Assembly: GCA_003577315.1 (NCBI GenBank)
Contig: QEVK01000004.1
Coordinates: 21,446 to 53,445, forward strand
Direction: 5' to 3'
DNA: 32,000 nt
Origin: Hyphomicrobiales bacterium
GTDB taxonomy: Bacteria; Pseudomonadota; Alphaproteobacteria; Rhizobiales; Rhizobiaceae
The notes beneath the pieces are model-generated. The model was not told the DNA's origin, did not search any database, and worked only from the letters and a program-made list of their open reading frames with translations. A program made the translations under genes and the position numbers. Numbering within the stretch: position 1 is the first letter of the stretch; the number at the start of each line of letters is the position of its first letter. This document shows, piece after piece, positions 4,519-23,273 of this stretch.

Positions 4519-4540
4519 TGCAATTGCAAATCGTTTGCAA
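4519..4540. promoter_or_regulatory. Candidate Mur/Fur operator in the sitA promoter
   Basis: The sequence is TGCAATTGCAAATCGTTTGCAA. It contains a perfect 7-3-7 inverted repeat TTGCAAA-TCG-TTTGCAA (4524-4540) overlapping a second palindrome TGCAATTGCA (4519-4528). It lies about 80-95 bp upstream of the sitA start, in the 362-bp sitA/mur divergent region. Confidence 0.55.
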
Positions 4541-8068: not shown

Positions 8069-8125
8069 AATGTCCTCCTGAGACGGGTCGATCCGGGCCG
8101 CGATGCGGCCGCAAGCAGGCCATGT

Positions 8126-8172
8126 GTCATGTCCGGCGTCATGCCTACGTCATCCAAGCCCTGAAGATGACG
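8126..8172. promoter_or_regulatory. GTCAT repeat array in the divergent protease promoter region
   Basis: GTCATG occurs at 8126 and 8138 and GTCATC at 8149, giving 12- and 11-bp spacing. The inverted copy GATGAC lies at 8166-8171. CGTCATC-N11-GATGACG therefore forms a 7-bp inverted repeat (8148-8172). Confidence 0.3.
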
Positions 8173-8317
8173 GTACGGAAGCGATTTGTCCGGCGCAATG
8201 TTGGAATATTTGCGGCGATGTGCGAGGCTTCGCCGCGCTCGCCGGAGGGGAGAGCGGCAATGCGCGGCTGGCGGGGCGGAGGACGGGGATTTCCGGCCAT
8301 CATGATCTCGACATCTT

Positions 8318-8347
8318 TTGCGTCTTGTTTCCGGTGCTTGCTTAACT
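8318..8347 (+). promoter_or_regulatory. Candidate sigma70-type promoter for the 8364 protease gene
   Basis: TTGCGT (8318-8323), an 18-bp spacer and TTAACT (8342-8347), followed by RBS GGGAGAG and the ATG at 8364. This is pattern match only. Confidence 0.25.
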
Positions 8348-8363
8348 TTGGGAGAGTCCCGCA

Positions 8364-9398
8364 ATGAAGTATACCCACAAGAGTTTCCTTGTTTCCGTCG
8401 CGCTCGCCGGCGCGATGTGGTCCGGCGCCGCGCTGGCGCAGTCGAGCTTCGGCGGCAGCGGCGAGACGCCCCGCGCCGTGCCGGGCGGGCCGGAACTGTC
8501 CGACCGCGGCGTCGCCGTAACCCCGCCCAAGGTCGACCTCGACGAGGTCGGGCGCGACCTCGACCTCGATCCCGAGAAGCTGAAGGAAAGCTACGGCACC
8601 GTCAGCCGCTCGCGCGGCGGCGAGGAAAAGCGCGAGGGCCCGAGCGAGGACGTGCTGCGCTCGCTCGACGGCGCCTTCAATCCCAACGCCGATCCGGCCT
8701 TCTCCGAGTCGGGCGACCGCCAGGTCTTCGGCGCCGACGACCGCGTGCAGGTCACCGATTCGTCCAACTATCCGTTCCGCGCCTTCGGCCTGCTCCAGGC
8801 CGAGACCAAGGACGGCTTCTCCAACTGCTCGGCGACGCTGATCGGCCCGCGCACCCTGCTCACCGCCGCGCACTGCCTCTACGACCACGACCAGGGCTGG
8901 TACGACAACTTCGTCTTCGCGCCGGGCCTGGTGTCGATGGACAACGCGCCCTTCGGCGTATGGGAGTACGAGACCGCCTACATCTTCGAGGGCTACATCA
9001 CCAACTATCAGGGCTACTACGGCTCGGTCGTGCCGTGGGACATCGCCGTCGTCATCCTCCAGCAGCCGATCGGCGACTATCTCGGCTGGCTCGGCTACGG
9101 CCACGACCCGCAGCTCGGCGACTTCCACGCCAACATCATCGGCTATCCCGGCGACAAGCCGGCCGGCACCATGTGGCGCGCCAATTGCGACGTCTCGCGC
9201 CAGGCCGTGCAGGAGCAGTACTTCCAGTACCACTGCGACACCTATGCCGGCACCAGCGGCGGCTCGGTCTACAAGTACGATCCGCAGAGCCAGGAGCGCA
9301 CCATCCTCGGCGTCAACGTGGCCGAAAGCGCGAACGCCAACACGGCCGTGCGCATGAACCAGACCTACTTCAACTGGGTCAAGGGCCTGGTGAAGTAG
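8364..9398 (+). CDS. Secreted serine protease, S1B / glutamyl-endopeptidase (V8)-like trypsin fold
   Basis: The 344-aa ORF has signal peptide MKYTHKSFLVSVALAGAMWSGAALAQS and an acidic, Gly-rich pro-region. It then reads RVQVTDSSNYPFRAFGLL, with triad motifs LLTAAHCLYD, WDIAVVIL and DTYAGTSGGSVY. Confidence 0.85.
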   Translation: MKYTHKSFLVSVALAGAMWSGAALAQSSFGGSGETPRAVPGGPELSDRGVAVTPPKVDLDEVGRDLDLDPEKLKESYGTVSRSRGGEEKREGPSEDVLRSLDGAFNPNADPAFSESGDRQVFGADDRVQVTDSSNYPFRAFGLLQAETKDGFSNCSATLIGPRTLLTAAHCLYDHDQGWYDNFVFAPGLVSMDNAPFGVWEYETAYIFEGYITNYQGYYGSVVPWDIAVVILQQPIGDYLGWLGYGHDPQLGDFHANIIGYPGDKPAGTMWRANCDVSRQAVQEQYFQYHCDTYAGTSGGSVYKYDPQSQERTILGVNVAESANANTAVRMNQTYFNWVKGLVK

Positions 9399-9424
9399 CA
9401 GGGGCCGCGCAGGCACGATCTCGC

Positions 9425-9457
9425 AAAAGCCCGCGGCCCTCCCGTCGCGGGCTTTTT
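9425..9457 (+). terminator. Rho-independent terminator after the S1B protease gene
   Basis: AAAAGCCCGCG (9425-9435), loop GCCCTCCCGT, then CGCGGGCTTTT plus T (9446-9457). It starts 27 bp after the stop codon. Confidence 0.75.
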
Positions 9458-9607
9458 CGTCCGCCTTGCGCGCCGGCGCGCGCCGCTTTAACGTCCCTTC
9501 CCATGGGGCAGGCCTCCCGAAGGCGGGGACCGCTGTCACGGCGAAGGCCTGCGGAGGAAAGCTGAGGCGCAACGCGCCTCGGAGGGTGCGGGAGGCATGG
9601 AAATCCG

Positions 9608-11434
9608 ATGGTTCGTTCCCGTCTGAGGCGCGGCGTGGCCGCGGCCGCGCTTGCCGGCGCGGTGTTGGCGATGCCCGTGACGCCTGGCGCGGCGGCCGAC
9701 GAGACCGGCGCCTGGTCGCGGCGCGTGCAGGTGGTCTACGACGCCGCCACCGGCTCGGTCGTGCGCGCCGCGCTGCGCGCCTGGGACTTCGAGCCCGCCG
9801 GCAACCTGGAATTCGTCTTCGAGCCCGATCCCGGCTCCGGCTTCGACCCGGCCGCCAACGGCGGCGCGATCACCGGGCGCGGCAAGCTCACCTGGCGGGT
9901 GCGCGGCTCGGCCTCCTACGACCGCCGCACCGTCCACTCCACCTATGTCGGCGCGCTCGCCGAGGGCCGGCCGCACGGGCAGGGCCGGCTGGAGCGCCGC
10001 AGCGGCGAGGTGCTGGAGGGCGAATGGGCCGCCGGCCGCCTCCACGGCAAGGGCGTGCGCATCGACGCCGACGGCACCCGCACCGAGGCGGTCTTCGTCG
10101 CCGGCCGCGCCGAGGGGCCGGGGCGGCAGACCACGCCGGACGGCACGATCTACGAGGGCGGCTTCCGCAACGGCCTGCGCCACGGCGAGGCGACGGTGCG
10201 CCTGCCGGGCGGCACCGCCTATGCCTCGCGCTGGCGGGCGGGCGTGGAGATTTCCAGCGCGCGACCGAACGCCATGGCCGACGCCATGGTCGGCGGGCTC
10301 TTGCGCGCGCAGGGCGGGGGCGGCGACGCCGGCAAGGTCGAGCTGTCGGTCTCCGTCGACCAGCGCATCACCCGGCAGGCCGACATGCAGTACGAGGATG
10401 CCGTGTTCGACGACCGCATCGAGATCTATCCGTCCGACCGGGCGATGGTCGAGGCGTGGCTCGGCGAGGCGACGATCTCGCCCGACAGCTACGGCGCCAC
10501 CTTCGGCTTCGTCGACTGGGAGGAGTCGCCGGCCTATCTGCAAGTCGGGCTGAAGACCACCGACGGCTCGCGCGTGCGCCTCGAGGCGCTCCAGCTCCAG
10601 GTCGAGGACAGCCAGGTCTACCGCAAGCCGTTCCTGTCGGTCATCGAGCATCGCGGCTGCGTCGCCTTCCGGCCGGACTTCAGCCTCGCCAACACCGGCT
10701 GGGGACCGGCGCATGACGGGCGGTTGTCGGTGGAGTTCTTCGACATCGACGGCAGCGGCCGCGCCAGCCGCGCCTTCGACGTCGCCGTCGGCGATTTCGA
10801 CGCCGGCGTCGACGTGTCGCTGCGCGCGGTGCTGGAGGAGGCCGGCGTCGACACGCGGGCGCTGGAGCGGGCGCGCTTCACCTGCGCCTCCGAGCAGGAG
10901 CTGCCGGCGTGCCGGCAACGGGCGATCGGCTCGCTGGAGTTCGGCGAGATCCGCGACCTTCTCTCCGGCGGCCCCGACATATCGGTCGGCGTGCGCGGCA
11001 CCTTCTCCTATGGCTGGGCCGACGACCGCGGCAATTCCTACGAGGCGAGCGAGCCGTTCGAGGCGTCGCTCCAGCTCGGCGCCATCGAGACCGAGACCAT
11101 GGTGGCCGAGCACGGCGCCGGCTGGGGCGACCCGCCCGCCGCCCTGCGCTACCAGGAGATCCGCCTGCCTTCGGACGAGCGGGACTATGTCGTCGACCTG
11201 ACCATGCGCGGCAACAGGAACGTCAGCGACGTTACGGCGCGGCTCAAGGTCTACGCGCAGGAAAGCTCGATCCACCGCTTCCGCGCCGTGGCGAGCTTCG
11301 CCGACGGCAGCATGCGCCAGACCAAGCCGGTGATGTTCTATCACGTGCGCCCGCGCGAGCCGGCCCATGTCCCGGCGGAGCCGGAGGCGGAGTGCTATCT
11401 CGACGACGCCGTCTTCGCGTCGCCGCGGGAATGA
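9608..11434 (+). CDS. Secreted MORN-repeat protein with a large uncharacterised C-terminal region
   Basis: The 608-aa ORF has signal peptide MVRSRLRRGVAAAALAGAVLAMPVTPGAAA. Four to five MORN-like units (YxGxhxxGxxHGxG) span residues about 88-214 (nt about 9869-10249): YVGALAEGRPHGQG, LEGEWAAGRLHGKG, AVFVAGRAEGPG and YEGGFRNGLRHGEA. I could not assign residues about 220-608 to any family. Confidence 0.75.
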   Translation: MVRSRLRRGVAAAALAGAVLAMPVTPGAAADETGAWSRRVQVVYDAATGSVVRAALRAWDFEPAGNLEFVFEPDPGSGFDPAANGGAITGRGKLTWRVRGSASYDRRTVHSTYVGALAEGRPHGQGRLERRSGEVLEGEWAAGRLHGKGVRIDADGTRTEAVFVAGRAEGPGRQTTPDGTIYEGGFRNGLRHGEATVRLPGGTAYASRWRAGVEISSARPNAMADAMVGGLLRAQGGGGDAGKVELSVSVDQRITRQADMQYEDAVFDDRIEIYPSDRAMVEAWLGEATISPDSYGATFGFVDWEESPAYLQVGLKTTDGSRVRLEALQLQVEDSQVYRKPFLSVIEHRGCVAFRPDFSLANTGWGPAHDGRLSVEFFDIDGSGRASRAFDVAVGDFDAGVDVSLRAVLEEAGVDTRALERARFTCASEQELPACRQRAIGSLEFGEIRDLLSGGPDISVGVRGTFSYGWADDRGNSYEASEPFEASLQLGAIETETMVAEHGAGWGDPPAALRYQEIRLPSDERDYVVDLTMRGNRNVSDVTARLKVYAQESSIHRFRAVASFADGSMRQTKPVMFYHVRPREPAHVPAEPEAECYLDDAVFASPRE

Positions 11435-11786
11435 ACAGCCGGAGCGATTCCAGTCCTGCAACCAAGCGGAAGCGCTTGAAGCCGCATAAAAGCGGCTGAA
11501 GCAAACGGACGGAGCGGCAGCCCGGGCCTGTCCGGGCGTCCGCCGCTCCAGGGCGGCGCGGCGGAAAAGCGGCGTCGCGACGGCCGGCGGCGGCCGGAGG
11601 CCCGCCCGGAAGCTTCACGGCGAAGGCCGCGCATCGAAGACGTCGTATCGGGATTTCGCTCCGGCATCCCGTTCGGGCCGCGGGCGGCCGTCATCCTTCT
11701 TTCCGGTCCATCCAGGCTCGCTGCGGGCTTCCCGCAGGCCTCCTGCGCAGGGGGCTTGCTTTCGCGTCGCGGATATGCCATTCCTG

Positions 11787-11800
11787 ACTGATCGATCAGT
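11787..11800. promoter_or_regulatory. Candidate TetR operator
   Basis: A perfect 14-bp palindrome ACTGATCGATCAGT lies 70 bp upstream of the tetR-family start at 11870. It extends to CTGACTGATCGATCAGTTAG with one mismatch. Confidence 0.4.
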
Positions 11801-11869
11801 TAGCGTATCGAGGCGAGGGTCGCCATCCGGCGAAGGCTCGATCCGTCCAGGTCGCAGGGAGGAATCGCA

Positions 11870-12565
11870 ATGGCGACGATCCGCGGCAAGCCGCGCGAGG
11901 ACGTGCCCGTGCAGGCGCGCGGCACCGCGCGCTTCGACATCATCCTCGACGCCGCCGAGCAGGTGTTCGGCACCGGCTATGCCGGCGCCAGCATGCGCGA
12001 GATCGCCGAGCGCGCGGGCGTCGCCCAGGCGCTGATCCACTACCATTTCGACACCAAGGAAAAGCTGTTCGAGGCGGTGATCGCGCGCCGCGCCAGCGAG
12101 ATCAACGGCCAGCGGGCCCAGATGCTCGACGCGCTGTTCGCCGGCGACGACGCCCCGCGCCTGGAGGAGGTGATCGAGGCGTTGTTCCGCCCGACCATCG
12201 CGGTCGACCACGACAACGCCAACAGCTTCTCGCGCATCCTCGTCTCCGCCGCCAACTCGGCGGAGGAGCGCGACCAGTTGCTGGTCCAGCGCTACTACGA
12301 CCCGATCGCGCTGAAGTTCATCGATGCCTTCATGGCGCTCACGCCGGGCCTCGCCCGCATGAACGCGGTGTGGGCCTACATGTTCGCCATCGGCGTCGGC
12401 ATGACGATGATGGCGACCACCGGCCGCCCGCTGCGCCTTTCCGGCGGCGAATGCGACGACCGCGACGTCGAGGCGATGCTGGCGCGCATCGTTCCCTTCA
12501 TCTGCGCCGGGGTGCGGGCGCTCGCCGACGGCGACCCCCACATCGGCCCCCGAAACGATCATTGA
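11870..12565 (+). CDS. TetR/AcrR-family transcriptional regulator
   Basis: The 231-aa ORF has the N-terminal HTH ILDAAEQVFGTGYAGASMREIAERAGVAQALIHYHFDTKEKLFEAVI. RBS AGGGAGGA lies upstream. Confidence 0.88.
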   Translation: MATIRGKPREDVPVQARGTARFDIILDAAEQVFGTGYAGASMREIAERAGVAQALIHYHFDTKEKLFEAVIARRASEINGQRAQMLDALFAGDDAPRLEEVIEALFRPTIAVDHDNANSFSRILVSAANSAEERDQLLVQRYYDPIALKFIDAFMALTPGLARMNAVWAYMFAIGVGMTMMATTGRPLRLSGGECDDRDVEAMLARIVPFICAGVRALADGDPHIGPRNDH

Positions 12566-12596
12566 CACGATCATTGCACAACCCAGGGAGGTAAGC

Positions 12597-13661
12597 ATGA
12601 CATTCAGAGCGACCATGACGGCGGCGTGCGCCCTGCTGGCGGGGGCGGTTGCCCTGCCGGCGCAGGCCGACGAGATCAACGTGACCGTGGTCAACGGCCA
12701 CCCGCCGGTGTTCCTGTGGGTGAAGCATCTCACCGAGACCTTCATCCCCACGGTCAACGCCAGGCTGGAGGGCACCGGCCACACCATCAGGTGGACCGAG
12801 GCCTATGGCGGCACGCTGGCCGCCGTCGGCGGCGAGCTGGAGGCGATCGAGGACGGGCTCGCCGAGGTCGGCGCGGTGCCGACCGTGTTCGAGCCGACGT
12901 CGCTGCCGCTGCAGAACGTGACCTACTACACGCCGTTCGGGACCTCCGACCCGCAGGTCGTCATCGACGCCGTCGACCGGCTGCACCAGGACGTGCCCGG
13001 CATGATCGAATCGTGGCAGAGCTACAACGCCGAATATCTCGGCGGCGGCTTCGCGCTCGACAACTATCTCCTGATGACCAACTTCCCGGTCGCCTCCGTC
13101 GACGACCTCTCCGGCCACAAGATCGGCGCGCCCGGCCCGGCGGTGAACTGGCTGGAGGGCACCGGCGCCGTCGGCGTCGCCGGCAACCTGACCACCTACT
13201 ACAACGACATCCAGACCGGCGTGTTCGACGGCACCATCGTCTTCCCGACGGCGGCGGCCCCGGCCAAGCTGCAGGAAGTCGCGCCGCACGTCCTGATCAC
13301 CGATTTCGGCGCCCAGTACGCCGGCTCGCTCGTCGCCAACAAGGAGTGGTACGACGCCCAGCCGGCCGAGGTGCAGGAGGCGCTGCGCGCCGGCGCGGCG
13401 GCCTACACCGCCGCCTACATCGCCGAGCAGAACGCGCGCGTCGAGGCGGCGCTGAAGCAGATGGAGGAGGGCGGGGCCAAGATCACGAAGCTCAGCCCCG
13501 AGGAGCGCGCCAGGTGGGCGGCGGCGCTGCCGCAGATCGCCGACACCTGGGCGAAGAACGCCGACGGGCAGGGCCTGCCCGGCTCGGACGTGCTGTCGGC
13601 CTATATCGGCCTCCTCAAGGAGGCCGGGGTCGAGCTGGCGCGCGACTGGTCGCAGCGCTGA
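12597..13661 (+). CDS. TRAP transporter substrate-binding protein (DctP family), atypical: lacks the conserved ligand-carboxylate Arg
   Basis: The 354-aa ORF has signal peptide MTFRATMTAACALLAGAVALPAQA. Its core LSGHKIGAPGPAVNWLEGTGAVGVAGNLTTYYNDIQTGVFDG aligns with the DctP motif LxGxKIRxP...ALQxGxxDG. It is followed by DctQ and DctM genes. Confidence 0.8.
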   Translation: MTFRATMTAACALLAGAVALPAQADEINVTVVNGHPPVFLWVKHLTETFIPTVNARLEGTGHTIRWTEAYGGTLAAVGGELEAIEDGLAEVGAVPTVFEPTSLPLQNVTYYTPFGTSDPQVVIDAVDRLHQDVPGMIESWQSYNAEYLGGGFALDNYLLMTNFPVASVDDLSGHKIGAPGPAVNWLEGTGAVGVAGNLTTYYNDIQTGVFDGTIVFPTAAAPAKLQEVAPHVLITDFGAQYAGSLVANKEWYDAQPAEVQEALRAGAAAYTAAYIAEQNARVEAALKQMEEGGAKITKLSPEERARWAAALPQIADTWAKNADGQGLPGSDVLSAYIGLLKEAGVELARDWSQR

Positions 13662-13669
13662 TCCCCGCC

Positions 13670-13695
13670 GGCTGCGGAGCGCCCCCTCCGCAGCC
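13670..13695 (+). promoter_or_regulatory. Intercistronic stem-loop between the SBP and DctQ genes
   Basis: GGCTGCGGAG (13670-13679), loop CGCCCC, then CTCCGCAGCC (13686-13695). This is a perfect 10-bp GC-rich stem with no U-tract, starting 9 bp after the SBP stop. Confidence 0.45.
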
Positions 13696-13743
13696 GCCCT
13701 CCCCCGTCCCCGAAACCCCCTCGGCGCAAAGGTCCGTCAAACC

Positions 13744-14322
13744 ATGCCGGAGAACGATGTCACCGGCCTGAAGAGCTTCGATGCCGTCTTCCGGCTCTTC
13801 GACCGCTTCACCGCCCTGATGAGCATCATCGGCACGCTCGCCATCCTGTTCATCATGTGCCTGATCACCGCCGACGTCGTCGGCCGCGCATTCCTCGGGC
13901 GCCCCATCCACGGCGTGCCCGAGATCGTGTCGATGCTGATCCTGAGCATCGTCTTCCTGCAGATCTCCAACACGCTCCTGCGCGGCAGGCTGACGCGCGC
14001 CGACGGCTTCCTGATGCTGGTGCGCGCGCGCTCGCCGCGGGCCGCCGGCGTGCTCGACGCCGTGATGCACCTGGCCGGCGTCGGCCTCGTCGGCGTTCTG
14101 GTGCACGCCTTCTACCCGCTGTTCCTGCGCAGCTGGGGCCGCAACGAGATGGTCGGCACCGTCGGGCAGTTCCTCGCCCCGATCTGGCCGACCTACCTGG
14201 TGGTGCTGGTCGGCTCGGCGGCGCTGTGCATCGCCTTTGCGCTGCGCGCCGCCGGCATCCTCATCGTCACCTTCTCGCCGGCCCCGGCCTCCTCCACGCG
14301 AGCGCGGGAGACGGCGCGATGA
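13744..14322 (+). CDS. TRAP transporter small permease (DctQ)
   Basis: The 192-aa ORF has four predicted TM segments (ALMSIIGTLAILFIMCLITADVVGRAFLGRPIHGVPEIVSMLILSIVFLQI...). It lies between the DctP and DctM genes, and its stop overlaps the DctM ATG as ATGA. Confidence 0.8.
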   Translation: MPENDVTGLKSFDAVFRLFDRFTALMSIIGTLAILFIMCLITADVVGRAFLGRPIHGVPEIVSMLILSIVFLQISNTLLRGRLTRADGFLMLVRARSPRAAGVLDAVMHLAGVGLVGVLVHAFYPLFLRSWGRNEMVGTVGQFLAPIWPTYLVVLVGSAALCIAFALRAAGILIVTFSPAPASSTRARETAR

Positions 14323-15635
14323 CCGGCTTCGAGATCGGCCTGTGGTCGCTCGGCGCGATCCTCGTCCTCATCTATACCGGCATGCACGTCGCCATCGCGC
14401 TGGCGCTGGTGTCGTTCTTCGGCATCTGGGTCCTGCGCGACAACCCCGAGCAGGCCGCGCGCATCCTGTCGCTGGCCGCGCGCGAGAGCATATCGTCCTA
14501 CCTGTTCGGCGTGGTGCCGCTGTTCGTGCTGATGGGGCTGGTGGTCAGCCGCGCCAATATCGGCCGCGACACCTTCGACGTCGCCAACCGCTTCCTCGGC
14601 CGGCTGCGCGGCGGGCTCGGCATCTCCACCGTCGGCGCCAACGCCATCTTCGCCTCCATCACCGGCATCTCCATCGCCTCGGCGGCCGTCTTCACCAAGA
14701 TCGCCGTGCCGGAGATGATGCGCGCCGGCCACACGGCCCGGTTCTCGACCGGCGTCGTCGTCGGCTCCTCGATCCTGGGCATGCTGCTTCCGCCCAGCCT
14801 GCTGATGATCCTCTACGGCATCCTCGCCGAGCAGTCGGTGGGGGCGCTGTTCATCGCCGGCATCGGGCCCGGCATCCTCGTCACCGTCATCTTCTGCGTC
14901 GGCATCTGGCTGATGGTGAAATACTGGAGCGACTTCACCGGCGTCGCCGCGCCGCAGGCCAGCTACGACACCGCCGGGCTGGCCGCCTGGGCCGACACCT
15001 TCGCCAAGCTGGCGCCCATCGTCGTGCTCGTCGGGCTGGTGCTGGGCGGGCTCTACGGCGGCATCTTCACGCCGACCGAGGCCGGCGCCATCGGCGCGCT
15101 GGGCGCCATCGTCATCGCCTTCCTCAAGCGCCGGCTTTCCGGCAGGGTGCTGTGGCAGGTCACCATCGAGACCGGCCACATCACCGCGGCGATCTGCTTC
15201 CTCATCATCGCCGCCACCATGTACAGCCGCATGCTGGCGCTGACCGGCCTGCCCGCCTTCCTCACCCAGTGGATCGTCGCCTTCGACGTCGGGGTCTACG
15301 GCTTCCTCGTCTTCTACATCGCCGTGCTGGTGCTGCTGGGCACCATCCTCGATTCCTCCTCCACCATGCTCATCACCGTGCCGCTGGCGCTGCCGATCGC
15401 CACCTCGCTCGGCATCGACCTGATCTGGTTCGGCATCATCACCGTGCTGGCGGTCGAGATCGGGCTGCTGACGCCGCCGATGGGGCTGTCGGTCTTCGTC
15501 GTCAAGGGATCGCTCGACGACCAGACCATCCCGCTGAAGGACGTCTTCATCGGCTCCGCGCCCTTCGCCGTGCTGATGCTGGTGGCGCTGTTCTTCATCG
15601 TCATGTTCCCGGGCATCGCGCTCGGGCTGCTCTAG
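14319..15635 (+). CDS. TRAP transporter large permease (DctM)
   Basis: This is 438 aa taken from the 13857-15635 ORF, starting MTGFEIGLWSLGAILVLIYTGMHVAIAL. It is polytopic and typical of DctM (GISTVGANAIFASITGISIASAA, LLTPPMGLSVFV). Confidence 0.9.
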   Translation: MTGFEIGLWSLGAILVLIYTGMHVAIALALVSFFGIWVLRDNPEQAARILSLAARESISSYLFGVVPLFVLMGLVVSRANIGRDTFDVANRFLGRLRGGLGISTVGANAIFASITGISIASAAVFTKIAVPEMMRAGHTARFSTGVVVGSSILGMLLPPSLLMILYGILAEQSVGALFIAGIGPGILVTVIFCVGIWLMVKYWSDFTGVAAPQASYDTAGLAAWADTFAKLAPIVVLVGLVLGGLYGGIFTPTEAGAIGALGAIVIAFLKRRLSGRVLWQVTIETGHITAAICFLIIAATMYSRMLALTGLPAFLTQWIVAFDVGVYGFLVFYIAVLVLLGTILDSSSTMLITVPLALPIATSLGIDLIWFGIITVLAVEIGLLTPPMGLSVFVVKGSLDDQTIPLKDVFIGSAPFAVLMLVALFFIVMFPGIALGLL

Positions 15636-15647
15636 GAAAGGACCCCC

Positions 15648-16424
15648 ATGGCCCGCCGCATCGTCGACCTGTCCGTCCCGCTCGAAACCGGGATCGCCTC
15701 CGACCCGCAGCCGATGCTGCCGCAGATCGCCTATCTCGACCACAAGGCCTCGGCCGTGCAGATGACTCAGTTCTTCCCCGGGCTGAAGGTGGAGCAGCTG
15801 CCGGGCGGCGAGGGCTGGGCGGTCGAGCAGCTCAACATCTCGACCCACAACGGCACCCATCTCGACGCGCCCTACCACTTCCACTCGACCATGAACGACG
15901 GCGAGCGGGCGATCACCATCGACGAGGTGCCGCTCGAATGGTGCATGGGCCCGGGCGTCAAGCTCGATTTCCGCCACCTCGACGACGGCTACGTCGTCAC
16001 GCCCGCCGACGTCGAGGCCGAGCTGAAGCGCATCGGGCACACGCTGAAGCCGCTCGACATCGTCGTCGTCAACACCAGCGCCGGCGCCGCCTATGGCCAG
16101 CCCGACTTCCTGAGCAGGGGCTGCGGCATGGGCCGCGACGCCACGCTCTACCTGCTCGATCGCGGGGTGCGCGTCACCGGCACCGACGCCTGGAGCTGGG
16201 ACGCGCCGTTCCTGCACACGGCGCGCCGCTTCGCCGAGACGGGCGACCCCTCCATCATCTGGGAGGGGCACCGCGCCGGCATGAAGACCGGCTACTGCCA
16301 CATCGAGAAGCTGTCGAACCTCGAGCAACTGCCCGCCACGGGCTACGAGATCGCCTGCTTCCCCTTCAAGATCAGGGGCGCGTCGGCAGGCTTCACCCGC
16401 GCCGTCGCCATCTTCAACGACTGA
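15648..16424 (+). CDS. Cyclase-family protein (kynurenine formamidase-like metal hydrolase, PF04199 type)
   Basis: The 258-aa ORF carries the signature HNGTHLDAPYHF (HxGTHxDxPxH) and a downstream GTDAWSWD. Confidence 0.8.
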   Translation: MARRIVDLSVPLETGIASDPQPMLPQIAYLDHKASAVQMTQFFPGLKVEQLPGGEGWAVEQLNISTHNGTHLDAPYHFHSTMNDGERAITIDEVPLEWCMGPGVKLDFRHLDDGYVVTPADVEAELKRIGHTLKPLDIVVVNTSAGAAYGQPDFLSRGCGMGRDATLYLLDRGVRVTGTDAWSWDAPFLHTARRFAETGDPSIIWEGHRAGMKTGYCHIEKLSNLEQLPATGYEIACFPFKIRGASAGFTRAVAIFND

Positions 16425-16456
16425 GCTTCAACGACCGACCAGGAGGACGAGGCGCC

Positions 16457-17395
16457 ATGGCCCGCAAAATGGACAAGATCATCATCACCTGCGCCGTGAC
16501 GGGCGGGGTGCATACGCCCACCATGTCGGACGCGCTGCCGGTGACGCCGGACGAGATCGCCAGCCAGTCGATCGAGGCCGCCGAGGCCGGCGCCTCGATC
16601 ATCCACCTGCACGCCCGCGACCCGCAGACCGGCCGGCCGACGCCGGACCCGGCGGTGTTCATGCAGTTCCTGCCGCGCATCAAGCAGGCGACCGACGCGG
16701 TGGTCAACATCACCACCGGCGGCGGCCTCGGCATGACGGTCGAGGAGCGGCTGGCGGCCGCGCTCGCCGCCGAGCCGGAGATGTGCTCGCTCAACATGGG
16801 CTCGATGAACTTCGCGCTCCACCCGATGGCCGGCAAGTACAAGGAGTGGAAGCACGACTGGGAGAAGCCGTTCCTGGAGGCCAGCGACGACTTCATCTTC
16901 CGCAACACCTTCCGCGACATCGCCCGCATCATCAAGCAGCTCGGCGACGGCTGCGGCACGAAGTTCGAGCACGAGTGCTACGACATCGGCCACCTCTACA
17001 ACCTCGCCCACTTCGTCGACGCCGGGCTGGTGAAGCCGCCCTTCCTGGTGCAGTCGATCTTCGGCATCCTCGGCGGCATCGGCGCGGAGATGGAGAACAT
17101 CATGTTCATGAAGCAGACGGCGGACCGGCTGTTCGGCGACGACTACGTCTGGTCGGTGCTGGCGGCCGGGCGCTACCAGATGCCGTTCGTGACCCAGGCG
17201 GCGATGCTGGGCGGCAACGTCCGCGTCGGGCTGGAGGATTCGCTCAACATCGGCAAGGGCAAGCTCGCCAGCTCCAACGCCGAGCAGGTGCGCAAGGTGC
17301 GGCGCATCCTCGAGGAGCTGGGCTACGAGATCGCCAGCCCCGCCGAGGCGCGCTCCGTGCTCGGCCTCAAGGGCGGCGACATGGTCAAGTTCTAG
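16457..17395 (+). CDS. BKACE-family beta-keto acid cleavage enzyme (DUF849; 3-keto-5-aminohexanoate cleavage enzyme-like)
   Basis: This is the C-terminal 312 aa of the 14237-17395 ORF, starting MARKMDKIIITCAVTGG. It shows IIHLHARDP (Zn His pair), VNITTGGG, NMGSMNF and NVRVGLEDS. Confidence 0.85.
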   Translation: MARKMDKIIITCAVTGGVHTPTMSDALPVTPDEIASQSIEAAEAGASIIHLHARDPQTGRPTPDPAVFMQFLPRIKQATDAVVNITTGGGLGMTVEERLAAALAAEPEMCSLNMGSMNFALHPMAGKYKEWKHDWEKPFLEASDDFIFRNTFRDIARIIKQLGDGCGTKFEHECYDIGHLYNLAHFVDAGLVKPPFLVQSIFGILGGIGAEMENIMFMKQTADRLFGDDYVWSVLAAGRYQMPFVTQAAMLGGNVRVGLEDSLNIGKGKLASSNAEQVRKVRRILEELGYEIASPAEARSVLGLKGGDMVKF

Positions 17396-17409
17396 GACGG
17401 GGCGCGAGG

Positions 17410-18423
17410 ATGCCGGCAAATCCCATCGACGGCTTCGAGGTCGATCCGGCCTCGATCCGCACCGTCGGCCGCGACCTGCAGCGGCCGGAATGCATCCTGG
17501 CCGAGCGCGACGGCTCGCTGTGGGCGGCCGACGCCCGCGGCGGGGTCGTCCACATCGCCCCGGACGGGTCGCAGCGCATCGTCACCCAGACGAGCGGCGC
17601 GGCCTTCGCCAACGCCACCGACGACGCCAGGCGCTTCACCGAGGGCACGCTGCCCAACGGGCTGGCCTTCGCCCGCAACGGCGACATCCTGATCTCCAAT
17701 TTCGGCACCGACCGGCTGGAGGTCATGAAGCGCACCGGCGAGACCGAGGTGCTTCACGACCGCATCGACGGAAGGCCCATCGGCAAGGTCAACTTCGTGC
17801 TGCGCGACAGCAGGGATCGCGTGTGGCTGACGGTGTCCACCACCATCCCGAACTGGATGCAGGCCATCAGCCCCGCCATCCGCGACGGCTTCGTGGCGGT
17901 CGCCGACGACAAGGGCCTGCGCATCGTCGCCGACGGCTTCCACTTCACCAACGAGATCAGGCTCGACGCGAAGGAGGAGTGGCTCTACGTCGTCGAGACC
18001 TGCGGCATGAGGGTGACGCGGCTGCGCGTCGGCGAGGACGGCTCGCTGTCGCAGCGCGAGACCTTCGGCCCCGAAAGCCACGGCGCCTTCATCGACGGCA
18101 TCGCCTTCGACGCCTTCGGCAACCTGTGGGGCACGCATGTGATGACGGACCGCATCTTCGCCATCACGCCGGACGGCGACCTGCGCATCCTGCTCGACGA
18201 CGACAGGGGCTCGCAGGCGGGCAAGGCGCTGATCGAGGCGTTCCACGCCGACCGCGCCACGCCGGAGCTGATGCTGACCTGCGGCGGCGCCATCGCGCCG
18301 TGGATGGCGAGCGTGACCTTCGGCGGGCCGGACCTGCGCAACCTCTATATCGGCAGCCTGCGCGGCACGACGATCCCCTGGTTCCGCGCGCCGGTGGCGG
18401 GCCTGCCGATGGCGCACTGGTAG
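17410..18423 (+). CDS. SMP-30/gluconolactonase/LRE-like beta-propeller protein (putative lactonase/hydrolase)
   Basis: This is 337 aa taken from the 16783-18423 ORF, starting MPANPIDGFEV. It shows PECILAERDGSLWAAD, PNGLAFARNGDILISNFG, TNEIRLDAKEEWLYVVET, DGIAFDAFGNLWGT and LYIGSL. Confidence 0.75.
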   Translation: MPANPIDGFEVDPASIRTVGRDLQRPECILAERDGSLWAADARGGVVHIAPDGSQRIVTQTSGAAFANATDDARRFTEGTLPNGLAFARNGDILISNFGTDRLEVMKRTGETEVLHDRIDGRPIGKVNFVLRDSRDRVWLTVSTTIPNWMQAISPAIRDGFVAVADDKGLRIVADGFHFTNEIRLDAKEEWLYVVETCGMRVTRLRVGEDGSLSQRETFGPESHGAFIDGIAFDAFGNLWGTHVMTDRIFAITPDGDLRILLDDDRGSQAGKALIEAFHADRATPELMLTCGGAIAPWMASVTFGGPDLRNLYIGSLRGTTIPWFRAPVAGLPMAHW

Positions 18424-18442
18424 GGCGGCCGCCGCGACGAGA

Positions 18443-18964
18443 TCATGCGCTGCGGCCCGGGTCGCGGGAGAACAGCGCCGCCGCCAGCGCCTCCGGCACG
18501 TCGCCTGCCCCGGCATGGCGCAGAAAGGCCGCGAGATTGGCCCGCGCCAGCTCCTGCGCGGGCCGGCGCGCAGGCTCCAGCGTTCCGGCCCAGCGATGCA
18601 GCATGGCCTGCTCGACCTGCTCGGCCTCCAGCTCGCGCCGCTTGATCTCCTCGCGCAGCCTCGCGCAACCCTCCTCCTCCATGAAAGGCTGCCGCTTCAT
18701 CCAGCTGCGGGCGGCGCGCAGCGGCAGGATGACGTTCTCGCGCCACGCCCCGATCAGGGCGTCGGCCCGCCCGATCGCCGGGCCGTCGGCCTCCACGCCG
18801 CGCTCGGCCCCCGCCCATAGCCAGAACATCAGCAGGTTCACGTCCACGCCATGGGCGTCCTGGAGCGCCAGGCAGGCCGGCGCCACGCCGGGCACCGCAT
18901 ATGTGCGAAGGCTGAAGCGCCACAGCGGATTGTGAAGGTCGAGCGCGTCCGCACGGTCGCTCAT
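18443..18964 (-). CDS. Conserved hypothetical protein, DUF2390/TIGR02444-like
   Basis: The 173-aa ORF begins MSDRADALDLHNPLWRFSLRTYAVPGVAPACLALQDAHGVDVNLLMFWLWAG. The N-terminal pattern matches my recollection of DUF2390 proteins. Coding looks real (ATG start, normal composition), but the family name is unverified. Confidence 0.5.
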   Translation of the reverse strand: MSDRADALDLHNPLWRFSLRTYAVPGVAPACLALQDAHGVDVNLLMFWLWAGAERGVEADGPAIGRADALIGAWRENVILPLRAARSWMKRQPFMEEEGCARLREEIKRRELEAEQVEQAMLHRWAGTLEPARRPAQELARANLAAFLRHAGAGDVPEALAAALFSRDPGRSA

Positions 18965-19061
18965 GCGCCGGCTCCGTTCCTCGCCGCGGCAGCGGCGGCC
19001 TCATATCGCGGCGGGCAGCCTCCGCCGCAGGCCGATGAATCCATTGCGCTTTCCCGAATCG

Positions 19062-19078
19062 CATAACCCATGGTTATG
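19062..19078. promoter_or_regulatory. Candidate operator upstream of the hydantoinase-like operon
   Basis: A perfect 7-3-7 inverted repeat CATAACC-CAT-GGTTATG lies 91 bp upstream of the ATG at 19169. It sits in the 204-bp divergent region between 18964 and 19169. Confidence 0.3.
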
Positions 19079-19168
19079 ACTCTGCCTCAAACCTGCATTG
19101 GAAGTAGCGGTTGCCTGCCACTATCGTCCCCTTCCTGTCTGCTCTAACAGAAGGGTCAGGGCCGTCGC

Positions 19169-20530
19169 ATGAGTGACTTCGATCTTGTTGTAACCGGCAG
19201 GGTGGTTTGCACAAGCCGGGTGATCGAAAGGGGCTTCGTTGCCGTTCGCGACGGAAAGGTCGTGATGGTCGGCGCCGGCGAGGGGCCGGCCGCGCGCGAC
19301 AGGCAGGATTTCGGCCCGGCCTATGTGCTGCCGGGCGCGATCGACGGGCAGGTGCATTCGCGCTCGCAGAAGGATGTCGAGGGGTTCGCCTGGTCGACGC
19401 GCGCGGCGGCGGCCGGCGGCGTCACCACCGTCGTCGACATGCCCTACGACGACGGCACCCTGATCTGCGACCGCGAGAGCTTCGAGGCCAAGAAGGAGAG
19501 CGCCGGCGAGGAGGCGCGGGTCGATTTCGCGCTCTACGCCACCATCCGCCCGTCCGAGGGCGCGGCGCGCATTGCCGAGCTCGCCGCGGCCGGCGCCAGC
19601 GCGTTCAAGTTCTCCACCTTCGACACGCATCCCGACCGCTTCCCCCGCATTCCCACGCCGCTGCTCTACGAGGCCTTCTGCGCCATCGCGCCGACCGGGC
19701 TCATGGGCGGCGTGCACAACGAGAACGACGAATGCGTGCGCCATTTCTCCGAAAAGGTGCGCGCGGCCGGGCTGGGCGACTATCGCGCCCACGGCATGAG
19801 CCGCCCGCCCGTGACCGAGACGCTGGCGATCGCCGAGGTCTACGAGATCGCGGCGGCCACGGGCTGCCCGGCGCACATCGTCCACTGCTCCGTCGGGCAC
19901 GGCTACGAGATGGCTGCCGCGTATCGGCAGCAGGGCGTGGACGCCACCGTCGAGGCCTGCATCCACTATCTCGTCCTCAGCGAGGAGGACGACGTGGCGC
20001 GCCTGGGCGGCAAGGCCAAGATCAACCCGCCGGTGCGCGTGCGCGCCGAGCGCGAGGCGCTGTGGAGCCATCTCGCCGCCGGCAACGTCACCATCGTCTC
20101 CACCGATCACGTGAGCTGGTCGGAGGACCGCAAGACCGACCCGGACATGCTGAAGAACGCCTCCGGCGTTCCGGGGCTCGAGGTCCTCTACACCCTGCTC
20201 GTCGACGGGCTCCTGGCGCGCGGCCTGCCGCTCACCCATGCGGCGCGGCTGCTGGCGGCGAACCCGGCCCGGCTGTTCCGTATGAGCCATGTCAAGGGCG
20301 CGCTGGAGCCGGGCTGCGATGCGGATATCGTCGTTCTCGGCCATCGTCCCTGCCGCTACGATGCCCGGGCCAGCGGGCACAACTTCGCCGGCTGGAGCCC
20401 CTACGAGGGCATGGAGCTGACGTGGCGGCCGGTCGCCACCTTCGTGCGCGGCCAACTCGTCTTCGACGGCCGCGACGTGCTGGCGCAACCCGGCGACGGC
20501 CGCTTCGTGCGGCCGCCCGAGCTGACGTGA
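19169..20530 (+). CDS. Cyclic amidohydrolase (allantoinase/hydantoinase/dihydroorotase-like) with a variant QxH first metal motif
   Basis: The 453-aa ORF has the beta-1 motif PGAIDGQVHS where HxH is expected. The remaining ligand positions are kept: GASAFKFS (carbamylated Lys position), GGVHNEN, AHIVHCS and IVSTDHVSW. Confidence 0.85.
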   Translation: MSDFDLVVTGRVVCTSRVIERGFVAVRDGKVVMVGAGEGPAARDRQDFGPAYVLPGAIDGQVHSRSQKDVEGFAWSTRAAAAGGVTTVVDMPYDDGTLICDRESFEAKKESAGEEARVDFALYATIRPSEGAARIAELAAAGASAFKFSTFDTHPDRFPRIPTPLLYEAFCAIAPTGLMGGVHNENDECVRHFSEKVRAAGLGDYRAHGMSRPPVTETLAIAEVYEIAAATGCPAHIVHCSVGHGYEMAAAYRQQGVDATVEACIHYLVLSEEDDVARLGGKAKINPPVRVRAEREALWSHLAAGNVTIVSTDHVSWSEDRKTDPDMLKNASGVPGLEVLYTLLVDGLLARGLPLTHAARLLAANPARLFRMSHVKGALEPGCDADIVVLGHRPCRYDARASGHNFAGWSPYEGMELTWRPVATFVRGQLVFDGRDVLAQPGDGRFVRPPELT

Positions 20531-20538
20531 GGACGAGG

Positions 20539-21852
20539 ATGCAGCGCGAAGCCGGCACCGCCCCGGTCCATCCCTCCAACCTGCCGGTCGACGGCGGGCG
20601 CATGTGGAGCGACCTGACGGCGCTGGCCTCCATCACCGAGCCGGACCGCCCGTGGACCCGCCGTTCGTTCACGCCGCGCTTCCTCGAAGGGCGCGCCTGG
20701 CTCGAGCGGCGGTTCCGGGAGGCGGGGCTTTCGACGCGCCTCGACGCGGCGGGCAACCTGATCGGCCGCCGCGAGGGGCGGGTTCCCGGCGCGCCGGCGA
20801 TCATGCTCGGCTCGCATTCCGACACCGTCCCCTCGGGCGGCCGCTTCGACGGCGTCGCCGGGGTGATCGCGGCGCTCGAGGTCGCCCGCGCGCTCGCGGC
20901 GGCCGGCACGGAGCTCGACCACCCGCTGGAGATCGTCGACTTCCTCGCCGAGGAGCCGAGCGAATACGGGCTTTCCTGCGTCGGCAGCCGGGGCATGGCC
21001 GGGGCGCTGGACGGCGGGCTGCTGGAGCTGACCGGGCCGGGCGGCGAGCGGCTCGACGCGGCCATCGACCGCGTCGGCGGCAACGTCGCCGCCCTGGCGC
21101 AGGCGCGGCGCGACGACGTCGCCGCCTTCCTCGAGCTGCACATCGAGCAGGGGCCCGTGCTTGAGGCGACCGGCACGGATGTCGGCATCGTCACCGCCAT
21201 CGTCGGCATCACGCGCCTCGAGATCGTCTTTTCCGGCCAGGCCGGCCATTCCGGCACGACGCCGATGGACCGCAGGCAGGACGCCGGCGTCGCCGGCGCG
21301 CGCGCGATGGTGTGGCTGCGCGACGAGGCGCGCGCGCTCGCCGCGGCCGGCGACGGCTATTTCGTCGCCACGGTCGGCATCGCCGAGGTCAGGCCCGGCG
21401 GCGCCAACGTGGTGCCGGGCGAGATGCGGCTCGTCGTCGACCTGCGCGGCGAGCGGCGCGGGACGATGGAGGATTTCCTGGCGCGGCTCGGCGCGGAAAT
21501 GGCGCGGATCGCCGGGGAGGAGGGCGCGCGCGTGTCGGTGGCGACCCTCTCCGACAGCCTGCCAGCCCATTGCGACGCGACGCTGCGCGCGGCGCTGGCG
21601 GCGAGCGCGCGCAGCCTCGGCGTCTCGTCGCTCGACATGGCCTCCGGCGCCGGTCACGACGCGGCGTTCCTCAGCCGCATCGCGCCCGCGGCGATGGTGT
21701 TCATCCCCTGCCGCGAGGGCAGGAGCCACTGTCCCGAGGAATGGACCGAGCCGGGTCAGCTTGCGGTCGGCGCCAGCGTCCTGCTTGAAGCGGTGCGCGC
21801 GCTCGACGCCCGTCTTTCCCGGCGGGACGCGCCAGGCGGAGAGGAAGCATGA
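20539..21852 (+). CDS. M20-family N-carbamoyl-L-amino-acid / ureido-acid amidohydrolase (AmaB/HyuC/AllC-like)
   Basis: This is 437 aa taken from the 19207-21852 ORF. It shows RRSFTPRFLEGRAWLERRFREAGL, DAAGNLIGRREG, IMLGSHSDTVPSGGRFDGVAGV, FLAEEPSEYG, ELHIEQGPVLE and SGAGHDA. The start could alternatively be the downstream Met of GGRMWSDL. Confidence 0.85.
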   Translation: MQREAGTAPVHPSNLPVDGGRMWSDLTALASITEPDRPWTRRSFTPRFLEGRAWLERRFREAGLSTRLDAAGNLIGRREGRVPGAPAIMLGSHSDTVPSGGRFDGVAGVIAALEVARALAAAGTELDHPLEIVDFLAEEPSEYGLSCVGSRGMAGALDGGLLELTGPGGERLDAAIDRVGGNVAALAQARRDDVAAFLELHIEQGPVLEATGTDVGIVTAIVGITRLEIVFSGQAGHSGTTPMDRRQDAGVAGARAMVWLRDEARALAAAGDGYFVATVGIAEVRPGGANVVPGEMRLVVDLRGERRGTMEDFLARLGAEMARIAGEEGARVSVATLSDSLPAHCDATLRAALAASARSLGVSSLDMASGAGHDAAFLSRIAPAAMVFIPCREGRSHCPEEWTEPGQLAVGASVLLEAVRALDARLSRRDAPGGEEA

Positions 21853-23261
21853 AGGAGGGGCAGGACATGGCGGGCACGGCGCCGTCGCGAAAGGACGAAT
21901 GGACATTCCGGGCCTATCTCGCCGAGCTCGACCGCCGCGGCGAGCTGGCCACCGTCGCCGCGCCGGTGCATGAGGACCCGTTCGGCATCTCCGCCTGCCT
22001 CTCGGCGCTGCATCAGGGGCCGGCCCTGCACTTCACCCATCCCGGCCCGACCGGCCTCACCGTCGCCGGCAACCTGCTCAACTCCATCGACAGGGTGGGG
22101 CTCGGGCTCCGGCTCGACCGCGGCGCGCTGCCGGCGGCGATCGCCTCGGCCATCGGCCGGCCGCTCAGGCCGCGCGAGGTGGCGCGGGGCGCATGCCAGG
22201 AGGTGGAGATGGAGCCGGATCTCGGCCTGCTCCCCATCCCGCGCTTCTTCGAGCACGAGACCGGCCCCTACATCACCGCCGGCTGCATCGTGGCCCGCGA
22301 CAGCCGCACCGGCCTCGGCAACCTGTCCTATGCGCGGCTGAAGCCGCTCGGCCCCGACCGCGCGCTCGTCGGCATCGCGCCCAACCACCACCTGGCGGTG
22401 ATGGCGCGGGCCGCAGCCGCGCGCGGCGAGCGCCTGCCCATCGCCGTCACCGTCGGCAACCATCCCGTCGTCCTGGTGGCGGCCGCCCTCTACCTCAAGC
22501 TGGGCGAGGACGAGATGGAGGTCGCAGGCGCGCTGCAGGGCGCGCCGGTGGGCGTCGTGCGCTGCCGCACGAGCGACCTGCTGGTGCCGGCCGATTGCGA
22601 GGTGGTGATCGAGGGCGAGATCGAGGTCGGCGAGACCGTGGAGGAAGGCCCGGTCAGCGAGTATCACGGCATGTACGAGCGCTACGGCGCCGGCCACGTC
22701 GTCAGGATCACGGCGATCACCCGCCGCCGCGACGCCATCTTCCAGGTCATCGAGCCGGGCTTCCACATCGAGCACCTTTTGATCGGCGGCGTCGCCATCG
22801 CCGCCGGGCTCGAGCAGCACCTCAAGGGCTTCGTCCCCGCGGTGGAGCGCGTCTCCGTGCTCGACAGCGGCTGCGGCCGGCTGTCGGCGGTGGTGGTGCT
22901 TGGGCCGGACCGCAAGCCCGGCGACCCCGTCAAGGCGATCATGGGCGCGCTGTCGGCCGTCAACCTCATCAAGCAGGTCACGGTGGTCGACAACGACATC
23001 GACCCCTGGGACGAGTTCCAGGTGCAGTACGCCGTCGCCACCCGCATGCGCGCCGATCGCGACATCGTCGTCGTGCCCGGGGCGCGCACCGACCGCTCCG
23101 AGCCGATGAAGCTCGGCGGCACCATCGCCAAATACGGCTTCGACGCCACCAGGCACGCCGAGGATCGCGACGACTGGACGCCGGCCCGCGCGCCGGCGGA
23201 CGCCTACCGGGACGCGGCGCCGATCATCGACGCCATACGCGCCGGCAAGCGCAGGATCTGA
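21849..23261 (+). CDS. UbiD-family (prFMN-dependent) decarboxylase/carboxylase homologue
   Basis: The 470-aa ORF shows LAELDRRGELATV, GPYITAGCIVARDSRTGLGNLSYAR, PNHHLAV, GEDEMEVAGAL, EEGPVSEYHGMY and VTVVDNDIDPWD. The ATG at 21849 overlaps the upstream stop as ATGA. The alternative ATG at 21867 has a stronger SD (AGGAGG, 8-nt spacer). Confidence 0.85.
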   Translation: MKEGQDMAGTAPSRKDEWTFRAYLAELDRRGELATVAAPVHEDPFGISACLSALHQGPALHFTHPGPTGLTVAGNLLNSIDRVGLGLRLDRGALPAAIASAIGRPLRPREVARGACQEVEMEPDLGLLPIPRFFEHETGPYITAGCIVARDSRTGLGNLSYARLKPLGPDRALVGIAPNHHLAVMARAAAARGERLPIAVTVGNHPVVLVAAALYLKLGEDEMEVAGALQGAPVGVVRCRTSDLLVPADCEVVIEGEIEVGETVEEGPVSEYHGMYERYGAGHVVRITAITRRRDAIFQVIEPGFHIEHLLIGGVAIAAGLEQHLKGFVPAVERVSVLDSGCGRLSAVVVLGPDRKPGDPVKAIMGALSAVNLIKQVTVVDNDIDPWDEFQVQYAVATRMRADRDIVVVPGARTDRSEPMKLGGTIAKYGFDATRHAEDRDDWTPARAPADAYRDAAPIIDAIRAGKRRI

Positions 23262-23273
23262 CGAGGGAGCGAC

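Follow-up and report, generated by a model that had tools for sequence, protein, structure and literature searches.

Which compound is taken up and broken down by the products of seven adjoining genes in the genome of a Hyphomicrobiales bacterium? The genes lie at 11870-18423 on the plus strand of a 32,000-nucleotide stretch of DNA (the window: assembly GCA_003577315.1, contig QEVK01000004.1, positions 21,446 to 53,445; G+C 70%). Analysis of G+C at third codon positions (GC3) in each frame, together with Pfam profiles, showed that they encode a TetR-family repressor, the DctP, DctQ and DctM subunits of a tripartite ATP-independent periplasmic (TRAP) transporter, a cyclase-family metal hydrolase, a BKACE (an enzyme that cleaves beta-keto acids) and an SMP-30-like propeller. 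The answer modestly favoured here is that they form a self-contained, redox-free operon in which a carboxylate-free acyl or cyclic 1,3-dicarbonyl compound would be hydrolysed and the resulting acid cleaved.

The features concerned are as follows.

11785-11802, no strand: putative TetR operator TGACTGATCGATCAGTTA, about 70 bp upstream of tetR
11870-12565, plus: TetR-family repressor, 231 aa (TetR_N 61 bits, TetR_C_30 85 bits)
12597-13661, plus: DctP-type TRAP solute-binding protein with signal peptide, 354 aa (PF03480, 85 bits)
13744-14322, plus: TRAP small membrane subunit DctQ, 192 aa (PF04290)
14319-15635, plus: TRAP large membrane subunit DctM, 438 aa (PF06808, 269 bits; TIGR00786, 302 bits)
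15648-16424, plus: cyclase-family metal hydrolase of a distinct subfamily, 258 aa (PF04199, 130 bits)
16457-17395, plus: BKACE of the triacetate/beta-ketohexanoate subgroup, predicted TAL orthologue, 312 aa (PF05853, 361 bits; NF053538, 542 bits)
17410-18423, plus: SMP-30/SGL-family six-bladed beta-propeller, 337 aa (PF08450, 70 bits)
18443-18964, minus: convergent DUF2390/TIGR02444 gene, 3' boundary, outside the module (Pfam/NCBIfam profile matches)

Conservation of the block and partners of the cyclase

A first-pass annotation had described these genes as one block with short gaps, followed by a convergent gene. Every position and spacing was reproduced (31 bp, 82 bp, an ATGA overlap between dctQ and dctM, then 12, 32 and 14 bp, from 5' to 3'), and the convergent gene proved to be the DUF2390 gene, which is not beside the block in relatives. 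The block itself is intact in seven relatives (six of the same genus, one of the same family), where all seven genes are kept, the enzymes follow the order Cyc-SMP30-BKACE or Cyc-BKACE-SMP30, and the flanks are unrelated (ABC transporters, a deacetylase-like gene, a formamidase-like gene, an ion channel). The absence of a dehydrogenase was likewise upheld, as none was found in or adjoining the block, either here or in the relatives. Genes of about 250 aa flanking the block in relatives, considered as the missing short-chain dehydrogenases/reductases (SDR), turned out to be ABC-transporter ATPases. Consensus scans of 11400-19100 found no promoter-like sites, and the single terminator-like match inside the block (15570-15588) represents a count no higher than chance expectation.

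The cyclase subfamily is found well beyond these relatives. Its orthologues are abundant (53-93% identity), and a pattern scan of one genome per species matched at least 600 stretches and gave at least 598 species genomes with a confirmed cyclase; the taxa among the matches listed comprise Alphaproteobacteria, Mycobacteriaceae, Pseudonocardia, Myxococcota, Verrucomicrobiota and Desulfatiglandales. Identity within the subfamily amounts to 67-81% across Alphaproteobacteria, Mycobacteriaceae, Myxococcota and Verrucomicrobiota.

The neighbours of the cyclase were counted within four gene positions at 113 loci; genes at these loci were called with a custom GC3-based caller, which overlooked a number of short ones, dctQ in a few loci among them. 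DctM, DctP and DctQ genes were present at 35, 34 and 32 of the 113 loci respectively, a TetR gene, opening the block, at 24, a BKACE at 23, a FAH-family protein at 22, an OsmC-like protein at 18 and SMP-30 at 14. The modal operon is TetR-P-Q-M-Cyc-(BKACE or FAH)-OsmC, with SMP-30 in a minority. The FAH partner belongs to the HpaG/FAHD1 group, which comprises diketo-acid hydrolases, decarboxylases and isomerases. Acids of the 1,3-dicarbonyl type are thus the substrates of either partner, which is the main argument that the cyclase probably yields an acid of this kind. In an even sample of 301 alphaproteobacterial genomes, the cyclase was found in 30, a TAL-type BKACE in 57, both in 17 and a DPGC-type cyclase, as known from phloroglucinol degradation, in 2; these are plain counts given without a statistical test, and related genomes are not independent.

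Other surroundings of the cyclase were also met. In five Rhodobacteraceae loci (L095, L097, L098, L106, L109) it directly follows genes for a NAD-dependent formate dehydrogenase (Nuo51-like and molybdopterin subunits), and in L106 TRAP genes are inserted between these and the cyclase; the cyclase reaction could release formate, or the arrangement could be inherited synteny. At three loci (L050, L054, L128) genes for a MarR regulator and a xanthine-dehydrogenase-type molybdoenzyme (FAD subunit and 930-aa Fe-S/MoCo subunit) come after the cyclase, a context that points, for some genomes, to pathways of N-heterocycle or aromatic hydroxylation. Finally, at L036 and L063 it is clustered with a FAD monooxygenase (FAD_binding_3) and a second FAH type with N-terminal domain 2, together with an alpha/beta hydrolase in L036 and SMP-30 in L063, an aerobic, aromatic-style context.

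Enzymes, transporter and regulator

The BKACE had been regarded as a member of its family lacking an assigned substrate, and this view has to be abandoned. The protein covers profile positions 1-274 of 274 of PF05853 and scores 542 bits against the NCBIfam equivalog NF053538 ('3,5-dioxohexanoate:acetyl-CoA acetone transferase'), well above the cut-off of 430; this equivalog corresponds to the TAL step of the phloroglucinol pathway. Rival equivalogs are failed, namely Kce of lysine fermentation (234 against 382 bits) and the 3-oxoadipate enzyme (163 against 350). The closest solved structures are 3E02, 3E49, 3LOT and 8RIO, and the motifs IHLHAR, FEHECYD and NVRVGLED align with 8RIO in such a way that the Zn ligands (HxH, E) and the equivalents of E171 and R254, whose roles were described for BKACE15 (PMC11961710), are kept. 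BKACE15 of Paracoccus denitrificans (PDB 8RIO/8RIP/9HNF) and the neutral-substrate BKACE group of Bastard et al. 2014 belong to the same subgroup (E 3e-109); the physiological role of BKACE15 is itself not known, and the TRAP/cyclase/SMP-30 context seen here was found in no paper. Substrates of the subgroup are 3,5-dioxohexanoate, beta-ketohexanoate and 5-hydroxy-beta-ketohexanoate (PMC11961710).

In parallel, the BKACE is 78.8% identical to that of the phloroglucinol-type cluster on plasmid pUSP2 of Aminobacter sp. MSH1, which carries IclR, cyclase, cupin, SDR, 3HCDH and, further along, BKACE. For the BKACE of the pLA3 cluster of Novosphingobium pentaromativorans, one of those listed in the 2023 phloroglucinol paper (PMC10470551), identity is 67%. 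The protein, the single BKACE of its genome, is by these measures a TAL orthologue with an assigned substrate subgroup and a predicted activity on 3,5-dioxohexanoate and acetyl-CoA. In a tree of the subgroup the cyclase-linked copies fall in several clades, interleaved with copies from canonical clusters and others, so that BKACEs of the subgroup were recruited into the operon more than once.

This assignment raises the question of the remaining phloroglucinol pathway. In Clostridium scatologenes the route consists of PGR (an SDR), DPGC (a cyclase), TfD (3HCDH-like) and TAL (a BKACE) (PMC10470551), and its proteobacterial form is a cyclase-cupin-SDR-3HCDH-BKACE cluster (Zhou et al. 2023, mBio, PMC10470551). 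The window operon resembles these clusters in its TAL-type BKACE, the cyclase directly upstream, the TetR-type regulator and the dedicated transporter. It differs in that no reductase, cupin or 3-hydroxyacid dehydrogenase was found in the block or the genome, in a cyclase of another subfamily, in an additional SMP-30 lactonase-like protein and in the use of an Arg-less TRAP transporter instead of MFS or ABC systems. The PGR, DPGC, cupin and TfD proteins of two canonical clusters served as tblastn queries against the whole genome (3.22 Mb, 94% complete); generic matches only, no orthologues, were found, and the cupin gave no match. SDR matches were at 33-37% identity (the best ones partial, at 35-37%, PGR orthologues between the reference clusters being 64% identical), and 3HCDH matches reached 28-35% (best 35%), whereas identity is 57-64% where the proteins of the reference clusters are true orthologues of each other. 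The Aminobacter DPGC query gave no match in the genome, and that of Novosphingobium only weak ones (25-30%) to the genome's two non-DPGC cyclases. No NF004783-type (TfD-like) dehydrogenase of the genome exceeds the cut-off (best 117 against 347 bits). Hence the situation considered in the first-pass annotation, that of an assigned subgroup with its pathway genes elsewhere, does not apply, as PGR, DPGC and TfD were found nowhere in the genome.

A DPGC-type gene was also not found in eight of nine other block-bearing genomes tested. Two genomes, G020 and G150, carry both the TRAP-cyclase block and a canonical DPGC. The 20 kb of G150 examined (L171, C1:3202000-3221999) contain a cluster with two DPGC genes, SDR, 3HCDH and cupin but lack a BKACE, and the only TAL-type BKACE of this genome is in a TRAP-cyclase-BKACE-OsmC operon (L057) 117 kb away. 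This gives a hint that both modules meet at the same intermediate, triacetate. Two further candidates for missing pathway genes were rejected. A 1.2-kb gap in L056 of G169 (10777-11985, between a PRK06129-type 3-hydroxyacyl dehydrogenase gene and cyclase-BKACE) holds no open reading frame longer than 104 aa and cannot hide a reductase, and the second cyclase of the window's genome (C17), like other alphaproteobacterial cyclases considered as DPGC partners of the BKACE, is isatin-hydrolase-like or KynB-like and adjoins no BKACE.

The cyclase contains the motifs HNGTHLDAPYH, GTDAWSWD and GYCHIEKL, and H67, H71, D73 and H77 of the HxGTHxDxPxH metal motif are invariant in 20 orthologues. The first-pass annotation had taken such proteins for metal-dependent amidases or formamidases; the metal motif holds, the restriction to amidases does not, because the family includes DPGC, a Mn-dependent C-C hydrolase (PMC10470551). 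Its identity to the Aminobacter and Novosphingobium DPGC-type cyclases is no higher than 23-25%, and the window protein has neither the WPY motif nor the C-terminal insertion seen in the published DPGC alignment (PMC10470551). In all-against-all bit scores it is equidistant (about 25% identity) from the DPGC, isatin-hydrolase and KynB types, and it fails the arylformamidase/KynB equivalog TIGR03035 (41.9 bits, cut-off 223). Isatin hydrolase (PDB 5NNA/5NNB), close to it in length, and KynB have PF04199 and the HxGTHxDxPxH motif in common with it (about 25% identity, E 3e-9), but its partners are beta-dicarbonyl-cleaving enzymes and not tryptophan or indole catabolism genes. Judged by its sequence, the cyclase is a subfamily of its own within PF04199.

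All three TRAP subunits are present (PF03480, PF04290, PF06808), and the label 'Arg-less' given to the transporter was well founded. In an alignment to PDB 4NAP, Gly177 of the binding protein occupies the place of the conserved carboxylate-binding Arg, which clamps the substrate in DctP-type organic-acid TRAP systems. The motif around this column is KIG, against RIR in the other TRAP binding protein of the window (26185-27129), which keeps the Arg as does 4NAP itself. The residue is G, A, S or N in 34/34 cyclase-linked orthologues. Such a binding protein fits a substrate without a carboxylate, in which case the carboxylate required by the BKACE must come from hydrolysis.

The SMP-30-like protein was modelled with AlphaFold2 on 22 orthologues (pLDDT 90.8, pTM 0.90). 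Its best fold match in the PDB is the beta-propeller lactonase RPA3624 (Foldseek E 8e-18, TM 0.71/0.81), followed by DFPase, xylonolactonase and SMP30, and an ESM Atlas look-up returned a generic family name only. RPA3624 of Rhodopseudomonas palustris (PDB 8DJF/7RIS/7RIZ) is, like the modelled protein, a six-bladed SGL-family propeller, but the two share 19% sequence identity, so that its substrate range is not transferable. E27, N83, N181 and D229 are invariant in the 22 orthologues, their likeness to the metal set of the family being judged by motif only. On the strength of the model a lactonase is plausible. SMP-30 had been counted as the third enzyme of the set; the lactonase-like fold agrees with this, the core role does not, as most related operons lack the gene, and the protein is an accessory one, dispensable in most sister operons.

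A perfect 14-bp palindrome had also been noticed before the operon. It is present as the core ACTGATCGATCAGT at 11787-11800 within the putative operator. Eight perfect 14-bp palindromes occur in the whole window, so that they are not rare by themselves, and the palindrome was rejected as stand-alone evidence. Its significance comes from conservation across genera: TGACTGA-N4-TCAGTCA also precedes orthologous tetR genes in at least eight further genomes from different genera (L030, L091, L103, L107, L114, L115, L124, L131) and very likely represents the TetR operator.

Proposed reaction sequence and candidate substrates

In the favoured reading, a small carboxylate-free substrate would be imported by the TRAP transporter through its Arg-less binding protein. 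The cyclase would then hydrolyse an acyl bond, which may be the C-C bond of a cyclic 1,3-diketone, the C-O bond of a beta-keto-lactone or the C-N bond of a beta-keto-amide. This step would create the carboxylate and give a beta-keto acid with an uncharged side chain, most likely 3,5-dioxohexanoate (triacetate) or a close analogue. The BKACE would move the acyl part of this acid to acetyl-CoA, yielding acetoacetate and an acyl-CoA (acetoacetyl-CoA if the acid is triacetate). The SMP-30-like propeller may serve as an accessory lactonase that opens a lactone form of the substrate or an intermediate, or that widens the substrate range. As no redox step is required, the module would take the place of three enzymes in the known phloroglucinol route, namely reductase, cyclohydrolase and dehydrogenase. 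The general scheme of the first-pass annotation, in which a ring or amide is opened and a beta-keto acid then cleaved, fits.

Several points weigh against this reading. TRAP, BKACE and FAH genes are all missing from the vicinity of the cyclase at about half of the 113 loci, and some loci adjoin xanthine-dehydrogenase-type molybdoenzymes or formate dehydrogenase, neighbours that hint at N-heterocycle or formyl chemistry. Among the 57 genomes with a TAL-type BKACE, 40 have neither cyclase type, so that the subgroup also serves other beta-keto acids, which leaves triacetate less than certain. FAH and BKACE occur together in one operon (L092) and may thus not be simple alternatives. The equal distance of the cyclase to amidases and to the C-C hydrolase DPGC means that the cleaved bond is not fixed by sequence. 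Finally, the seven genes are predicted to be co-transcribed from their spacing only.

The order of preference among substrates is phloroglucinol-type cyclic triketones, then 4-hydroxy-2-pyrones, then beta-keto-amides including 3-oxo-acyl-homoserine lactones. In the first case, which is possible but well short of probable, the transporter would import phloroglucinol or a close polyphenol fragment, and the cyclase would hydrolyse the triketo tautomer to triacetate by a retro-Claisen reaction, as DPGC does with dihydrophloroglucinol; the BKACE would complete the route, and SMP-30 would re-open any triacetic acid lactone that triacetate had formed. The BKACE is orthologous to TAL, and hydrolase and DPGC belong to the same family (PMC10470551), but direct hydrolysis of an aromatic triol is without precedent, and the cyclase is about 25% identical to DPGC, with neither its WPY motif nor its insertion. 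A binding protein without the carboxylate Arg suits a neutral phenol, and sister operons have FAH-family enzymes in place of the BKACE. Triacetate is hydrolysed by animal FAH. The hosts, Rhodobacterales from the sea and Hyphomicrobiales associated with plants, live in habitats rich in phlorotannin- or flavonoid-derived phloroglucinol. The two genomes that hold both the block and a canonical DPGC can be read in two ways: the modules would be redundant if both degraded phloroglucinol, but the PGR/DPGC/TfD cluster of G150 lacks a BKACE within 20 kb and the only TAL-type BKACE is in the cyclase block. That the cyclase turns phloroglucinol or a similar carboxylate-free cyclic 1,3-dicarbonyl straight into triacetate is put forward as a tentative proposal.

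A beta-keto-lactone as the substrate is rather unlikely. The compound would be triacetic acid lactone, either as such or in the 5,6-dihydro form, or a pyrone or tetronate related to it, and the ring would be opened by the cyclase, SMP-30 or both to triacetate or 5-hydroxy-3-oxohexanoate before BKACE cleavage. Such a route, too, needs no redox step and starts from a substrate without a carboxylate; the fold of SMP-30 is nearest the broad-range lactonase RPA3624, and the BKACE subgroup takes both 3,5-dioxohexanoate and 5-hydroxy-beta-ketohexanoate. However, most related operons keep cyclase and BKACE without SMP-30, so that the cyclase itself would have to be the lactonase, an activity not known in its family. 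In addition, at least 598 cyclase-bearing species genomes call for a more abundant substrate than these pyrones are known to be, and no paper on bacterial catabolism of triacetic acid lactone was found.

An amide or N-heterocycle route is unlikely. Here the cyclase would resemble isatin hydrolase and KynB in being an amidase, lactamase or formamidase, and would release a 3-oxo acid for the BKACE from a beta-keto-amide, for example an N-(3-oxoacyl)-homoserine lactone, or from a ring-opened N-heterocycle, the lactone part being hydrolysed by SMP-30. The characterised family members nearest in length and architecture are indeed amidases, beta-ketohexanoate is a confirmed substrate of the BKACE subgroup, an accessory lactonase suits an acyl-homoserine-lactone substrate, and the molybdoenzymes of L050, L054 and L128 and the formate dehydrogenase genes of the five Rhodobacteraceae loci are in keeping with it. 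Nevertheless, no acyl-homoserine-lactone acylase is known in the cyclase family, a TRAP importer is odd for a freely diffusing signal molecule, the BKACE falls in the neutral-substrate and not the amino-keto-acid subgroup (Kce 234 against 382 bits), and the cyclase fails the arylformamidase equivalog (42 against 223 bits).

Highly improbable, and rejected, is the canonical pathway with PGR and TfD encoded elsewhere in the genome and the window cyclase acting as DPGC: cyclase and TAL-type BKACE stand side by side as in the published clusters, and a genome 94% complete leaves a small chance of genes in unassembled DNA, but tblastn found no PGR, DPGC, cupin or TfD orthologue (best SDR 36-37% and 3HCDH 35%, against 57-64%), no NF004783-type dehydrogenase is above cut-off, the cyclase is just 23-25% identical to DPGC-type proteins, and eight of nine block-bearing genomes have no DPGC.

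Surroundings of the operon and significance

The remaining genes of the window are of other kinds. Metal uptake of the ZnuABC/ABC-3 type is encoded by an ordinary-looking operon (912-5239, minus), from which a gene for a Fur-family regulator diverges. This operon is followed by two genes for trypsin-like serine proteases (7043-8068, minus; 8364-9398, plus) and, directly upstream of the operon, by one for a 608-aa MORN-repeat protein (9608-11434); the protease and MORN-repeat genes (7043-11434) are unrelated to the operon and are not in the flanks of its relatives. Downstream, a second co-oriented catabolic cluster (19220-29052, plus), with a divergent LysR regulator (29086-30015, minus), encodes an amidohydrolase, an M20 peptidase, a UbiD-like decarboxylase, a DUF917/S-Me-THD-like protein, a urocanase-family protein and the complete TRAP transporter to which the Arg-containing binding protein belongs. 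The pairing of urocanase and UbiD in this cluster is unusual.

No paper describing the TRAP-cyclase-BKACE block was found, and the block is not among the entries of the NetSyn BKACE context tables. BKACE-based catabolism is already known, and the phloroglucinol-to-triacetate route was solved in 2023; the operon is of the BKACE-terminated catabolic type, with its last step in common with the phloroglucinol pathway and a different hydrolase subfamily. It couples a known terminal enzyme to an uncharacterised hydrolase subfamily found in at least 598 species genomes, in a module whose TRAP transporter cannot clamp a carboxylate. Automatic annotation will label the BKACE a phloroglucinol-pathway enzyme, although the remaining pathway was not found in the genome, so that surveys based on genomes could count polyphenol degradation too often or too rarely.

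Once the substrate is identified, three large 'family protein' groups would receive functions together, and a redox-free route of ring opening might come to light. If phloroglucinol is hydrolysed directly, two enzymes and an Arg-less TRAP transporter would replace a four-enzyme, NAD(P)H-cycling pathway, and the operon would represent a widespread shortcut in the mineralisation of polyphenol carbon by marine and plant-associated bacteria, using neither redox chemistry nor oxygen.

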